The notes below the pieces were generated by a model. The model searched no databases, was not told the DNA's origin, and was given only the letters and a program-made list of their open reading frames with translations. Below are positions 12,444 through 16,622 of a stretch of 32,000 bases of DNA, in pieces. Numbering within the stretch: the stretch's first letter is position 1; every line of letters begins with the position of its first letter. The translations under genes were made by a program, and so were the position numbers. Source of the stretch: an uncultured archaeon (lineage in GTDB: Archaea > Asgardarchaeota > Thorarchaeia > Thorarchaeales > Thorarchaeaceae); the NCBI GenBank assembly GCA_964648855.1, contig CAZYLT010000012.1, forward strand, positions 1 to 32,000, given 5' to 3'.

Positions 12444-13118
12444 TCAATCAGTCAATTTCATTACAACTTCAATGTGTTCCTTCGCCTTTTCTTTGAATTC
12501 ACTAAGAGCTTGCTCGACATCATCTGGGATATCCTCTGTCCAAGGTGCCTCCGCATCTCTCTCAACGCCATACTTCATATTTTCAAAAGGTAGAAACTTC
12601 GCATTCCCTGATTTTTCTAAGGAGATGGTGCCAATCCATTGTCCACCTTTTACTATCTCATATGACGGAAGAAACTTCTCTAGTGATTTAGGTACGATGG
12701 CATTCCAGAAGATCGACATGCCATTAAATTCGTCTCGACCGCCTAGACCAATGGTATATGTCTCGAAAATTGCCTTTGCGAATTTAATGTTGTAGATGAT
12801 TCCTATTTGGCAGTTCAAGCACTGATTGAACTCGAGCCCGTCACCATCCTCATCAACATATGCAATCCCATTTTTCTCGACATTATTATCATTACAGTGA
12901 ACGCAAAGGTTCATCCCCCACCTGACTTCAAGATAGTCTTCAAAGGGACCTTTAAGGAACCGGTCTTTAGCGCCTTCAAAGGCCGAACGGACAGCCTCTA
13001 CTTCTTCTCCATCCATTTTCTTGTGGACTGCTCGCCAGACCTCAAGCAAATCCTGCCATAAGATATTGTAGATAATATCAGCAAGCTTGTCCAAGGATTG
13101 TTCTTCAAGATGCGACAA
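12444..13118 (-). CDS. Hypothetical protein with putative zinc ribbon
   Basis: 224-aa ORF with CVHC...CLNC pairs. GGTGA SD lies upstream of the TTG start. Confidence 0.65.
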   Translation of the reverse strand: MSHLEEQSLDKLADIIYNILWQDLLEVWRAVHKKMDGEEVEAVRSAFEGAKDRFLKGPFEDYLEVRWGMNLCVHCNDNNVEKNGIAYVDEDGDGLEFNQCLNCQIGIIYNIKFAKAIFETYTIGLGGRDEFNGMSIFWNAIVPKSLEKFLPSYEIVKGGQWIGTISLEKSGNAKFLPFENMKYGVERDAEAPWTEDIPDDVEQALSEFKEKAKEHIEVVMKLTD

Positions 13119-13269
13119 CTGTAATCACCCTATGTTGTTCAATGGATATAGTTTTGAGGTGACCGACAATTAAGTGTTGGTTGCACTTATCCAAATTGAC
13201 CCAAAATGCCTGAATAGCCAAGTATGCCTAGCCTAAGATTTTTAACTAGAACGCTTGCCATATCAGCTA

Positions 13270-13424
13270 GTCCACAAGGAGAGTAAAGGATGGATTGCCA
13301 AATTAGCCTGTAACGCGGGCCTTTCAACTAGATGCTGGTATATGCTTCTCTCAAACTTGAGGACGAGCAGACTACTTCTGCCATATTTGAAGTTCAGTGC
13401 TAACAAAACAGAGAGGAGAGTAGA
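13270..13424 (+). promoter_or_regulatory. Putative structured 5' leader of ileS
   Basis: TATA-like TTTTTAA at about 13239-13245. Long-range stem GTCC-A-CAAG-GAGAG / CTCTC-AAA-CTTG-A-GGAC enclosing several hairpins. Confidence 0.5.
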
Positions 13425-16400
13425 ATGAGTCCACTCCCGAAGAGATACAATCCGCAGCTTGTTGAAGATGAGATACTAGATTTCTGGACAGAAAATAACA
13501 TCAAAGATAAGACTGTTGAGATGAGAAAAGACGGGCCGAGATGGAATTTCTTGGAAGGGCCACCCACAACAAATGGTTTCATGCATGTGGGCCATGCACG
13601 TGGTAGAGCTATGAAGGATGCCCAGCTCCGATACATGACAATGAAGGGATATAATGTATGGAGAAGAGGGGGATGGGATATGCAAGGGCTTCCTGTAGAG
13701 CTCGAAGTGGAAAAGAACGAGGGGTTGGCTGAAAAGGGAGAGATTGAGTCAGAGATAGGCCTTGAAAGCTTCGTGGAGAAATGTAAGGAACTAGTAGACT
13801 TCTATCTGGAAAGATGGGTGGATGATTCAGTCCGACTAGGCCTATGGCTAGATTATGAAACTGCATACCAGACAAGAAGAGATGATTACATTGAACATGT
13901 CTGGCATTTTCTGAAGCTAGCCAGCGAAAAGGGACTCCTTGGAAGAGGATATAGAGTGAACCCCATATGTCCCAGATGCGAAACAGCACTATCTGGACAT
14001 GAGGTATCACAGGGCTATCAAACAAAAGACGATCCCTCGATATACGTGAAATTCAGGAGGCAAGGTAAAGAAAATGAATACCTAGTGATATGGACTACAA
14101 CGCCCTTCACCCTCCTTTCTAATGAACTCGTGTCGGTACATCCCGACTATACATATGTAAAACTCAAAATAGAAAATGAGTTTTGGTGGATAGTAGAGGA
14201 CCTAGTTGAAACCGTGATGGGAAAGGCTGGAATTGAAGACTATGAATTTGAAGAACGAATAAAGGGCAAAGAGATGCGTGGATGGAAATACGTTCACCCA
14301 TTCAAACCAGAAGTCCCATTTCATCAAGAACATGATGAGGAATACATGCATGCCGTAGTGACTGGAATACATGTGACTGTTGAAGAGGGTACTGGGTTGG
14401 TGCATACCGCGCCAGGATTTGGCCCAGATGACTTTGAAGTGGGCAAGGAATTTGGTGTTCCAGTGTTCAACCCCGTCACTAGCAAGGGGAGATTCACAGA
14501 TGAAGTTCCAATGTTTGAAGGAAAGTTCGTATTTGATACAAATGAAATAGTACCCAAGATGCTCGATGAAAAGGGGCTCTTAGTTCATAAAGAAACCATA
14601 GAACACGAGTATCCACACTGTTGGCGATGTGATTCGCCTCTTATCTACCTAGCAGATGCAACTCAATGGTTCCTCAAAATGGAAGGAGTAAGAGAACAGC
14701 TGGTAGAAAAGAATAGAACTGTTGATTGGACTCCTGAATGGGCTGGCACTGGCCGGTTTGGCGACTGGGTGGCAAATGCAGATGACTGGTGCATCTCCCG
14801 CTCTCGAATATGGGGATCACCACTACCGGTCTGGGTCTGTAAAGAGTGCAGCGAAGAGGTAGTCATAGGAAGTCGGAAAGAACTCAAAGAACGGGCAATA
14901 GAATTTCCAGATGAATTTGAAATGCATAGACCTTGGGTCGATGAGATTGTTCTCCGGTGTACAGAATGCGAAGGCAAAATGTATCGTGAAGAGTTTGTCT
15001 TAGATTGCTGGTTGGACTCGGGAATGGCACATACCGCCAGTCTACATTACCTGAAGGACCCAAGCGTCTTCAAAGAGATATTTCCATTTGACTTCATCAC
15101 AGAAGCGGTTGACCAATCTCGCGGTTGGTTTTACAGTCTGCTGTATACCTCCGTCCTTCTTCATGGAGATGTTGCATTCAAGGCGTGCGTAAGTCAAGAG
15201 CACGTATTAGATGAAGATGGAGGAAAAATGAGCAAGTCAAAGGGCAATGTGGTCTGGGCTAAAGACGCGTTCGAAGATTTGGGTGCAGATCCGTTCAGAA
15301 TGTTCATGCTTACAAGGTCAGCTTCATGGACGCGAACCAATTTCAGCACAAAGCAAATAGAATTGACTAGAAGAAATCTTGACATTCTCTGGAATGTTGT
15401 GCTTTTTGCCGAAACATACATGGAACTGGATGAATTCAAGTATGATGAGAAGCGGATGCTAAGCAATTTGGACAAGGCAGAAATGGAAGATAAGTGGCTT
15501 CTTTCCCGCGTGCAGACTGTTCTCAAAGAGTTCCACAAGCACATGGACAAATATCTCTGGCATCTAGCGGGAAGAGTTCTCCTAGAATTCATCTCAGATG
15601 ACCTCAGCCGAGTATACCTTCCTCTAGTAAAGAAGAGGGTTTGGCTTGATGCGGATAATCCTAAGAAAGTCATGGCATATGATACACTATTCTACGCGTT
15701 GGACACCATAATACGTTGTCTTAACATATTCACTCCCTTCTTGGGTGAATATCTACACCAACACTTTTTGAATCGGTTCAGTACCAGCAATCTCGAATCC
15801 ATTAATATGACAGAAATGCCCGGAGTTTCCGACCCCCTATTTGATTCAGAGATAGAGGCAGCCTTCCACGTCCTTCAAGAATTACGCTCTGCATCAAGTC
15901 ATGCGAGGAACAAGAAGGGCATGAAGCTTCGTCACCCTGTTGCTAAAGTCATGTTAATACCTGCAAGTGATGAGGTTGGACATAGGGCACTCTCATTAAG
16001 GGAATTGCTCCTTGAGGATTTGAACACGCGTCAATTTGAGGTTCTTGACTCAGAAGTTGTATCTGAGTTCATCGACTTGAGTGTGAAACCAAACTATCAG
16101 ACACTTGGTCCAAAATACAAGGACAAAATGAAGGAGCTAGTTAAAGTGCTTCAAGAAGCAGATGCGAACAAGTTACGAACTGACCTACAGAAAGGTGAGG
16201 CAGCCCTCAGAGTTGGTGAAGAGAATCTCAAGGTAGAACTTGAAGACGTGGAATTCGAGGAGTCATTACCCGAATACCTTAGTCGTGCAGAGAGCAGAAT
16301 AGGCGATGTATATGTGGATCTCACACGAACAGAGGATCTTGAAGCAGAAAGCCTCGTTAGAGATGTGACAAGAAGAGTGCAGGTAATGAGAAAAGAGCTC

Positions 16401-16622
16401 GACCTAGATGTGGACAAGAATATCGACTTGGTCGTTCAGTTTTCTGACAAGAATTCTCTTCAGCTTGCACAAATGTATGAGGGATATCTGTCGAATGAGA
16501 CAAGGGCAGAGTCCACAATTCTAGCTGGTCCTCAAGAAGAACCGGAATGGAGCCAGTATGATCATGTCAAAACCTGGGAAATAGATGACCTAGAGATAAA
16601 AGTTGGAATGACACCGCGGTAG
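13425..16622 (+). CDS. ileS: Isoleucine--tRNA ligase (archaeal/eukaryotic type)
   Basis: EGPPTTNG.MHVGH (HIGH), GWDMQGLPVE, IWTTTP and GTGLVHTAP (editing domain), YPHCWRC, WCISRSR.WG, EAVDQSRGWF, KMSKS. 1065 aa. Confidence 0.96.
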   Translation: MSPLPKRYNPQLVEDEILDFWTENNIKDKTVEMRKDGPRWNFLEGPPTTNGFMHVGHARGRAMKDAQLRYMTMKGYNVWRRGGWDMQGLPVELEVEKNEGLAEKGEIESEIGLESFVEKCKELVDFYLERWVDDSVRLGLWLDYETAYQTRRDDYIEHVWHFLKLASEKGLLGRGYRVNPICPRCETALSGHEVSQGYQTKDDPSIYVKFRRQGKENEYLVIWTTTPFTLLSNELVSVHPDYTYVKLKIENEFWWIVEDLVETVMGKAGIEDYEFEERIKGKEMRGWKYVHPFKPEVPFHQEHDEEYMHAVVTGIHVTVEEGTGLVHTAPGFGPDDFEVGKEFGVPVFNPVTSKGRFTDEVPMFEGKFVFDTNEIVPKMLDEKGLLVHKETIEHEYPHCWRCDSPLIYLADATQWFLKMEGVREQLVEKNRTVDWTPEWAGTGRFGDWVANADDWCISRSRIWGSPLPVWVCKECSEEVVIGSRKELKERAIEFPDEFEMHRPWVDEIVLRCTECEGKMYREEFVLDCWLDSGMAHTASLHYLKDPSVFKEIFPFDFITEAVDQSRGWFYSLLYTSVLLHGDVAFKACVSQEHVLDEDGGKMSKSKGNVVWAKDAFEDLGADPFRMFMLTRSASWTRTNFSTKQIELTRRNLDILWNVVLFAETYMELDEFKYDEKRMLSNLDKAEMEDKWLLSRVQTVLKEFHKHMDKYLWHLAGRVLLEFISDDLSRVYLPLVKKRVWLDADNPKKVMAYDTLFYALDTIIRCLNIFTPFLGEYLHQHFLNRFSTSNLESINMTEMPGVSDPLFDSEIEAAFHVLQELRSASSHARNKKGMKLRHPVAKVMLIPASDEVGHRALSLRELLLEDLNTRQFEVLDSEVVSEFIDLSVKPNYQTLGPKYKDKMKELVKVLQEADANKLRTDLQKGEAALRVGEENLKVELEDVEFEESLPEYLSRAESRIGDVYVDLTRTEDLEAESLVRDVTRRVQVMRKELDLDVDKNIDLVVQFSDKNSLQLAQMYEGYLSNETRAESTILAGPQEEPEWSQYDHVKTWEIDDLEIKVGMTPR

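Follow-up and report, generated by a model that had tools for sequence, protein, structure and literature searches.

How does an archaeon adjust the amount of an aminoacyl-tRNA synthetase to the charging of the tRNA that it serves? Synthetase regulation and the sensing of tRNA charging are little known in archaea, and we know of no T-boxes in this domain. The question is raised by the region upstream of ileS in a genome belonging to the Thorarchaeota (Asgard archaea). A preliminary description, made from the sequence alone, had regarded this region as a candidate for a multi-branched regulatory RNA that switches ileS translation in response to tRNA-Ile or isoleucyl-tRNA synthetase (IleRS). We report that the leader carries a short upstream open reading frame (uORF) with an invariant Ile codon, that the +1 frame is open from this codon up to the ileS start, and that similarly organized leaders with Leu and Pro codons at the corresponding position precede leuS and proS. 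Judging from these sequences the ileS leader very probably reports on tRNA-Ile charging, and we consider it probable that it does so in a manner resembling the release factor 2 gene prfB, i.e. that a hungry Ile codon would trigger a +1 frameshift coupled to the translation of ileS. The preliminary description knew of no such element in archaea, and in the literature searched we likewise found no published description of frameshift control of a synthetase.

The ileS locus and its promoter

The window (the whole stretch of DNA analysed, 32,000 nucleotides) contains ileS on the + strand (13425..16622). The gene encodes an IleRS of 1065 aa with the Pfam families tRNA-synt_1, Anticodon_1 and DUF5915, and its orthologues are 65-92% identical across the family. 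A divergent gene on the strand opposite to ileS (12444-13118) encodes a 224-aa protein without a Pfam family; its coding region ends at 13118 and the 306 nt between the two genes hold the entire ileS leader.

The promoter (13229..13246, + strand) comprises a BRE-like element, TAGCCTAAG, and the TATA box TTTTTAA (13239-13245). It is conserved in the family leaders, and in 64 of 65 leaders the TTTTA core lies 46-56 nt upstream of the uORF ATG. From the usual spacing between archaeal TATA boxes and the transcription start site (TSS), the ileS TSS is predicted to lie near 13266-13272, approximately 20 nt upstream of the uORF. A search for sequencing runs that contain 12900-14400 gave four DNA runs, all from a single study of a microbial mat, and no RNA run. 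The ileS Shine-Dalgarno sequence (SD), GAGAGGAGAG, is located at 13411..13420 (+ strand) and its GAGAGG is nearly invariant in type-1 leaders. Folding gave a predicted unpaired probability of ~0.39 for this SD and no consistent partner; nor was a conserved partner that would sequester it found by folding of the relatives.

Two other motifs were observed in the same intergenic region. Specifically, CAATTAAGTGTTGG (window 13160-13190) is kept in most of the family leaders inspected, ~70-80 nt upstream of the ileS TATA box, and a GGTCAA box is present ~12 nt before the ileS BRE. Together they probably represent the promoter of the divergent 224-aa gene, or a regulator site.

A short upstream ORF with an invariant isoleucine codon

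Comparison of the ileS upstream regions of 15 family genomes (IleRS 65-92% identical) gave a common layout, in which the promoter box is followed ~50 nt further on by an SD, the codons ATG GAT TGY CAA ATY and a stop, mostly at codon 7. In the window this uORF (13290..13313, + strand) reads ATG GAT TGC CAA ATT AGC CTG TAA (M-D-C-Q-I-S-L-stop), and this reading frame is referred to as frame 0. Its SD (13276..13283, + strand), AAGGAGAG in the window and AGGTGAGA in most relatives, doubles as the 5' strand of the closing helix P1 (see below), and a GGTGA or GGAGA is present 5-9 nt upstream of the uORF ATG in 56/65 leaders. The view of the preliminary description that ileS has a cis-regulatory leader is supported in that the leader is conserved, while the segment which it had read as stems (13285-13304) is an SD-led uORF.

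A 16-mer covering the uORF core occurs in exactly one copy per genome in 68 of the 86 family genomes, always just upstream of ileS, also in genera having a second type of IleRS (~35% identical); the reversed 16-mer, used as control pattern, gave zero occurrences in the 86 genomes. The encoded peptide is MDCQI plus one residue in 52 of 65 leaders, with synonymous variation between TGC and TGT and between ATT and ATC. The Ile codon at position 5 is invariant and in some leaders it is followed by a second Ile codon. One leader (L239) has lost the uORF ATG and has an in-frame TTG upstream.

Two copies of the 16-mer are present in one genome, G048 (contigs C44 and C153). The copy in leader L053 has a stop as its first +1 codon and may be a decayed duplicate or contamination.

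The proposed shift site (13299..13304, + strand) consists of CAA (13299-13301), which would occupy the ribosomal P site, and the Ile codon ATT (13302-13304) in the A site, with AAA (13300-13302) as the +1 codon. The site thus has the sequence C-AAA-U, the frame-0 stop follows two codons past AUU, and the putative P-site tRNA, tRNA-Gln(UUG), is encoded in the genome.

The +1 frame is open up to the ileS start codon

From AAA, the +1 frame runs through 42 sense codons (13300..13428, + strand) and ends at a TGA (13426-13428) that overlaps the ileS ATG (ATGA). The gene ileS itself is in frame 0, with its own SD, and the +1 frame stops at the ileS AUG, i.e. the synthetase is not encoded as a +1-frame fusion with the frame-0 peptide. 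In 54 of 58 leaders the +1 frame contains no stop between AAA and a point 9 nt short of the ileS start (35-60 codons in all), as compared to 11 leaders for frame +2 and none for frame 0 over the same span, where the mean number of stops is 4.3 for frame 0 (range 1-11) and 1.6 for frame +2. The four exceptions have an earlier +1 stop, at -14, -25, -66 and -79. Relative to the ileS start, the +1 frame ends as ATGA (+1), as TAATG (-2) or with a TGA at -8. Shuffled spans are stop-free with P ~0.09 per leader, and the frame is open in 13 of 14 representatives sharing less than 60% identity (joint log10 P ~-13.7).

Moreover, the distance between the uORF ATG and the ileS ATG is 123, 126, 129, 132 or 135 nt in 34 of 35 type-1 leaders; due to this multiple-of-three spacing the +1 stop falls on the ileS start codon. 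The peptides encoded in the +1 frame are not conserved (~25% identity). Removal of an intron by bulge-helix-bulge splicing, readthrough of stop codons and a small protein that is antisense or overlapping were weighed as other causes of the spacing, and these were dropped because of the stops in frame 0 and the lack of conservation of the +1 peptides.

Leaders outside the motif set and in other Asgard families

Six family genomes lacking the exact 16-mer served as an out-of-sample set. Their leaders encode MDCEI, MDHEI, MDRQI, MDYQI (two leaders) and one TTG-started variant; NAA-ATY is present in all six, and the +1 frame then stays open for 39-42 codons, with its stop at +1, -2 or -4. NAA-ATY is in fact shared by every Thorarchaeota leader and recurs in at least five other Asgard families, the remaining codons being variable. 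The peptides in these other families are MDREI, MGREI, MDRQI, RDRKI, MRGLEI, MRDLQI and TERQI, i.e. the constant part is a start, 2-4 codons, NAA and ATY. Here the +1 frame reaches or slightly passes the ileS start (within ~16 nt), except in leader L021 where it ends 26 nt short. The open stretch of the +1 frame in leader L018 has AAA as its very first codon, and frame 0 of L021 terminates immediately after ATT; the region in which both frames are open is consequently reduced to NAA-ATY.

A looser scan gave candidate leaders with TTT-ATT and CTT-ATC, for which re-pairing would involve two of three positions, and a few of the candidates seem to use the -1 frame. In two leaders of one family (L261 and L262, f21), which read GTG TAT CGN CGN CAA ATT, it is the -1 frame, not the +1 frame, that is open, for 71-75 codons to just before ileS. 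These may represent a backward-slipping variant.

Leaders of other synthetase genes

Leaders with the corresponding organization precede leuS and proS, the enzyme identities of which were confirmed with NCBIfam. The leuS leader of the same family (genome G000, contig C6, ~92818-92921; leaders L323-L342) encodes M-D-C-V-L with GTT CTY at the putative shift site, and its first three codons (start, GAT, TGC) are common to the ileS leader. The +1 frame is 31-35 codons long in 17 of the 19 listed leuS leaders (three from other Asgard families), and 18 and 40 codons in the other two. The proS leader (genome G000, contig C2, ~119001-119097; leaders L350-L366) encodes MLGECVP (ATG CTA GGT GAA TGC GTT CCR). 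This pattern is present in 16/17 family leaders and in two leaders from other Asgard families, with a +1 frame of 23-29 codons in the family leaders that ends on or passes the start (ATGA in G000). In most leuS and proS leaders the +1 frame ends on or beside the start codon. According to our arithmetic, the chance of finding the cognate codon after the slippery codon in all three leaders (ileS, leuS and proS) is ~3e-4.

In proS an SD-like GGTGAA followed by a 3-nt spacer precedes the slippery GTT, the perfect SD-like part, GGTGA, being 4 nt from GTT; this leader has a clear candidate for a stimulator such as that of prfB. The ileS and leuS leaders have AGGATGGAT followed by TGC, which gives only a weak anti-SD match (the assembly lacks the 3' end of the 16S rRNA). 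It was also observed that the leuS leader has a downstream AGTCC segment able to pair with GGATT, as has the ileS leader.

No such leader was found upstream of thrS in the Thorarchaeota family. In this genome thrS is preceded by a uORF that contains a Thr codon and whose +1 frame is open. This uORF was rejected as chance, being unconserved even within the genus and located upstream of the conserved thrS promoter, and it does not constitute a fourth sensor. The thrS upstream regions (L293-L322) share a strongly conserved promoter box, CGCCAAGCTTAAGTG, ~45 nt before the thrS ATG, and from this position it follows that the thrS 5' UTR of Thorarchaeota is short and contains no frameshift leader. 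Hence, as judged from the upstream regions, the putative sensor system is not general to all synthetases, thrS being without one. For serS, valS, aspS, asnS and metS of this genome no convincing leader was found. Upstream of glyS (genome G000, contig C3, ~83970-84052) there is a uORF reading ATG CTG TTG ATT GGG TCT, in which ATT is followed by a Gly codon; the +1 frame comprises 24 codons and terminates at an ATGA. This may be chance, as in the thrS case.

A conserved hairpin closes over the uORF start

The stems named in the preliminary description are all present in the sequence, and so are the two copies of GGAGAGTA (13278-85 and 13415-22). Its basal stem, here P1, has its 5' strand at 13270..13283 and its 3' strand at 13345..13364 (both + strand), and the latter is composed of a pyrimidine segment resembling an anti-SD (CTTCTCTC in the window and TCTCRCCT in relatives) together with CTTG and GGAC. 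The pairs are GTCC/GGAC (13270-73/13361-64), CAAG/CTTG (13275-78/13357-60) and GAGAG/CTCTC (13279-83/13348-52). P1 is the basal stem of the minimum free energy (MFE) fold and pairs the uORF SD (13276-83) with the anti-SD-like segment downstream (13345-52).

The comparison with shuffled sequences favours a structured leader in part. For the 108-nt domain 13266-13373 we obtained z = -1.93, with 9/200 shuffles as good, whereas the whole region 13270-13424 folds no better than its shuffles (z = -0.18; 83/200 as good). The latter outcome is one that the preliminary description had listed as counting against its model, but it arises only from the lack of structure in the 3' third of the region. For the same domain in 16 divergent relatives z is negative in 15 (mean ~-1.9), and the SD/anti-SD-like closing helix appears in most of the relatives' folds (15 of 16 by dot-bracket reading). 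In a plain MAFFT alignment 61.9% of the cells pair at the P1 register as compared to 38-46% with the partner slid; the corresponding figures for a model-fitted alignment of 64 leaders, which leans towards structure, are 68.6% and 36-46%, and here the covariation score was reached in 1/500 shuffles. The flanking pairs of P1 covary (AU, CG, UG and UA at one position) and the strands differ, GGAGAG/CTCTC in the window versus GGTGAGA/TCTCGCC elsewhere. A closing hairpin over the uORF SD and AUG is thus real.

Conservation in relatives, then, holds for the outer stem but not for the sequences of the inner hairpins. The apical hairpin GCCTG-TAACG-CGGGC (13306..13320, + strand) begins 2 nt after the Ile codon and has the frame-0 stop in its loop. 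Compared to a same-genus genome (GCCAA/TTGGC) it has two compensatory pair changes, and relatives have a hairpin of differing sequence at this position. The hairpin GCAGA-CTACT-TCTGC (13367..13381, + strand) was also confirmed, and according to the alignments a YTTCTG motif recurs here in many relatives. Together, the comparisons indicate selection on the Ile codon, on the slippery codon before it and on an open +1 frame, but not on the peptide or the inner stems.

Proposed mechanism

We propose that a ribosome would translate AUG GAU UGC CAA and pause with its P site on CAA and its A site on AUU. With Ile-tRNA-Ile plentiful, AUU and two more codons would be decoded followed by termination at UAA, after which the leader hairpin (SD/anti-SD-like) would close over the uORF start. 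With Ile-tRNA-Ile scarce, due to low IleRS activity or low isoleucine, the peptidyl-tRNA-Gln would slip +1, from CAA to AAA, and the shifted ribosome would read 41 further +1 codons and terminate at the UGA overlapping the ileS AUG (AUGA). Reinitiation at AUGA, or opening of the start region, would then give more IleRS, and the ribosome cover of the leader may in addition protect the transcript. More IleRS would restore charging and turn frameshifting off, i.e. act as negative feedback. Possibly, the hairpin limits ribosome loading on the uORF unless a shifted ribosome keeps the 3' strand open.

Some features count against this model. Re-pairing of tRNA-Gln or tRNA-Glu on AAA would involve a first-position mismatch, the uORF has one sensor codon only (two in some relatives), and ileS has a good SD of its own, partly accessible according to folding. 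The four leaders with an earlier +1 stop, the weak SD-like match of ileS and the lack of such a leader at thrS also count against it.

Alternative explanations

An SD-led uORF with a conserved Ile codon, a conserved hairpin sequestering the uORF SD and AUG, and T-rich YTTCTG motifs downstream would also be expected for plain leader-peptide attenuation without a frameshift, where a ribosome stalled at the Ile codon covers the 5' strand of the hairpin and alters folding or transcription termination. We regard this as unlikely: it gives no account of the openness of the +1 frame (54/58 leaders), of its end on the ileS start or of the multiple-of-three spacing. Neither a conserved terminator/antiterminator pair nor a conserved partner of the ileS SD was found, and with the one alternative pairing that was observed, a stalled ribosome would release the anti-SD-like strand, such that ileS is repressed and not induced. 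No terminator-like site was found on the + strand, which is a weak test given that archaeal termination signals differ from bacterial ones.

Alternatively, the long +1 ORF might initiate by itself at a non-canonical or SD-internal start and be coupled to ileS, with the frame-0 uORF as a competitor or irrelevant. ATGA overlaps are typical of coupling, and in 25/65 leaders a GTG inside the SD is the sole +1-frame start; this frequency is, however, approximately the one-in-three expected by chance. In 38/65 leaders there is no ATG, GTG or TTG in the +1 frame before AAA, and together these numbers leave a +1 shift from the uORF as the only entry. In several leaders the uORF ATG is even preceded, at a distance of 2-11 nt, by a stop in the +1 frame. 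With the conserved ATG, NAA-ATY and the cognate codons of leuS and proS also left unexplained, independent initiation appears quite improbable.

The preliminary description favoured a structured RNA binding tRNA-Ile or IleRS, resembling a T-box or the thrS operator, with an anti-SD swap to the ileS SD. The closing helix is real, the anti-SD-like strand is on paper complementary to both SDs in the window, and AUY could act as a specifier. On the other hand, when 12900-13700 was searched with cmscan (both strands, E up to 10) none of the 4227 Rfam families, the T-box RF00230 among them, matched, and the anticodon-loop heptamer CTGATAA, as a sign of tRNA mimicry, is present in only 2/58 leaders, the core being an SD-led ORF. 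The second state of the proposed two-state switch, i.e. pairing of 13345-52 with the ileS SD, is predicted neither in the window nor in 34/35 relatives, and blocking of the 5' strand did not bring it about (mean pair mass 0.4; above 3 in 1/35). Moreover, an in-frame start codon, the SD spacing, a near stop and an open +1 frame are features of translation that such an RNA leaves unexplained. We therefore consider this alternative highly improbable; sensing of tRNA-Ile is retained from the preliminary description as a very probable report on its charging, which would not act through an RNA bound to tRNA-Ile or IleRS.

Finally, RNA polymerase slippage on the A run (AAA or AAAA at the site), putting the uORF in frame with the long ORF, is scarcely credible since the known sites of transcriptional slippage have much longer tracts than 3-4 A and since it would explain neither the cognate codon after the run nor GTT-CTY in leuS and GTT-CCR in proS.

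Comparison with known regulatory systems

The ileS leader and the T-box riboswitch on bacterial ileS (RF00230) would have the same task, to raise ileS when tRNA-Ile charging falls. They show no match in sequence or structure, and sensing would be by the ribosome in the former, by direct tRNA binding in the latter. Leader-peptide attenuation is known for amino-acid operons and for pheST in enterobacteria. Attenuation leaders also have a small ORF whose cognate codons report charging to a downstream gene; the ileS leader differs in having one or two sensor codons instead of a run, in that no terminator/antiterminator was found, and in that the read-out would be a change of frame.

Among frameshifting systems, the logic proposed for the ileS leader is that of prfB, the bacterial autoregulatory +1 programmed frameshift (PMC5009743). 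The two have in common a short frame-0 ORF and would share a slippery P-site codon next to an A-site codon decoded slowly when the own product is scarce, and negative feedback by a +1 shift that increases the synthesis of this product. The slow codon is a stop in prfB and a sense codon (Ile) in ileS. The prfB +1 frame encodes a protein fused to the frame-0 peptide, whereas the ileS +1 frame encodes no conserved protein and would only lead to a gene with its own initiation, via the stop-start overlap. Furthermore, prfB is bacterial and the ileS leader archaeal, and at 3 nt upstream ileS has at most a weak SD-like stimulator. As far as the account in PMC5009743 (its ref. 61) goes, a ketolide-induced frameshift in the ermC leader takes translation on into the spacer, with unfolding of the ermC start, and to that extent both systems would use a leader-ORF frameshift and new-frame translation across a spacer to activate a downstream gene. 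The ermC trigger is a drug and the direction and site of the shift differ; for ileS the proposed trigger is an empty A site and the frame ends on the start.

Shifting at hungry codons, where limitation of one aminoacyl-tRNA causes the P-site tRNA to slip +1, has been described by Gallant and Lindsley and for Ty1 (CUU-AGG-C) (PMC5009743, PMC8211752). Its occurrence in bacteria is described as for the most part an error of starvation with no clear use, and for Ty1 it sets a fixed ratio of products (PMC5009743); the ileS leader would by comparison be a dedicated sensor for the matching synthetase. In C. elegans zip-2, an overlapping ORF shifts +1 when elongation is slowed (PMC11831180), and as in our model frameshifting in an upstream ORF under slow elongation gives access to the main product. 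However, zip-2 is eukaryotic, it senses elongation in general and yields a fused protein, and it is neither codon-specific nor a case of synthetase control. A 2021 review of recoding in archaea has only one case of frameshifting, in the -1 direction (PMC8211752). If our reading is true, such a codon-specific sensor would represent a novel answer to a problem that is universal; no regulatory +1 frameshift would precede it in archaea, nor any natural case in which slippage at hungry codons serves as a dedicated sensor of an amino acid.

A proposed family of leaders and a possible exchange of IleRS types

Given the leuS and proS leaders, we are inclined to place the ileS leader in a family of +1 frameshift sensors, each with a cognate codon, that would occur across Asgard archaea and serve at least ileS, leuS and proS in Thorarchaeota. 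As part of the same reading, such a family would be a ribosome-based counterpart of the bacterial T-box, in which the A site reads charging and the frame that serves as track delivers the ribosome to the start. The element is located in the closest prokaryotic relatives of eukaryotes. It is ~160 nt long, its specificity should be programmable via one codon, and it would as such be a potential synthetic sensor.

Finally, two types of IleRS, which are ~35% identical to one another and have different N-termini (MSPLPKRY... and MFKPVPSQ...), are found in a single family and even in a single genus. The same uORF leader precedes both types (L028-L030, L037, L043-L045 and others, in genomes G002, G005, G015, G017, G035 and others), and for the second type the +1 frame ends at a TGA 8 nt before the start. 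The presence of two IleRS types behind one leader suggests that the synthetase gene has been swapped downstream of a retained leader.
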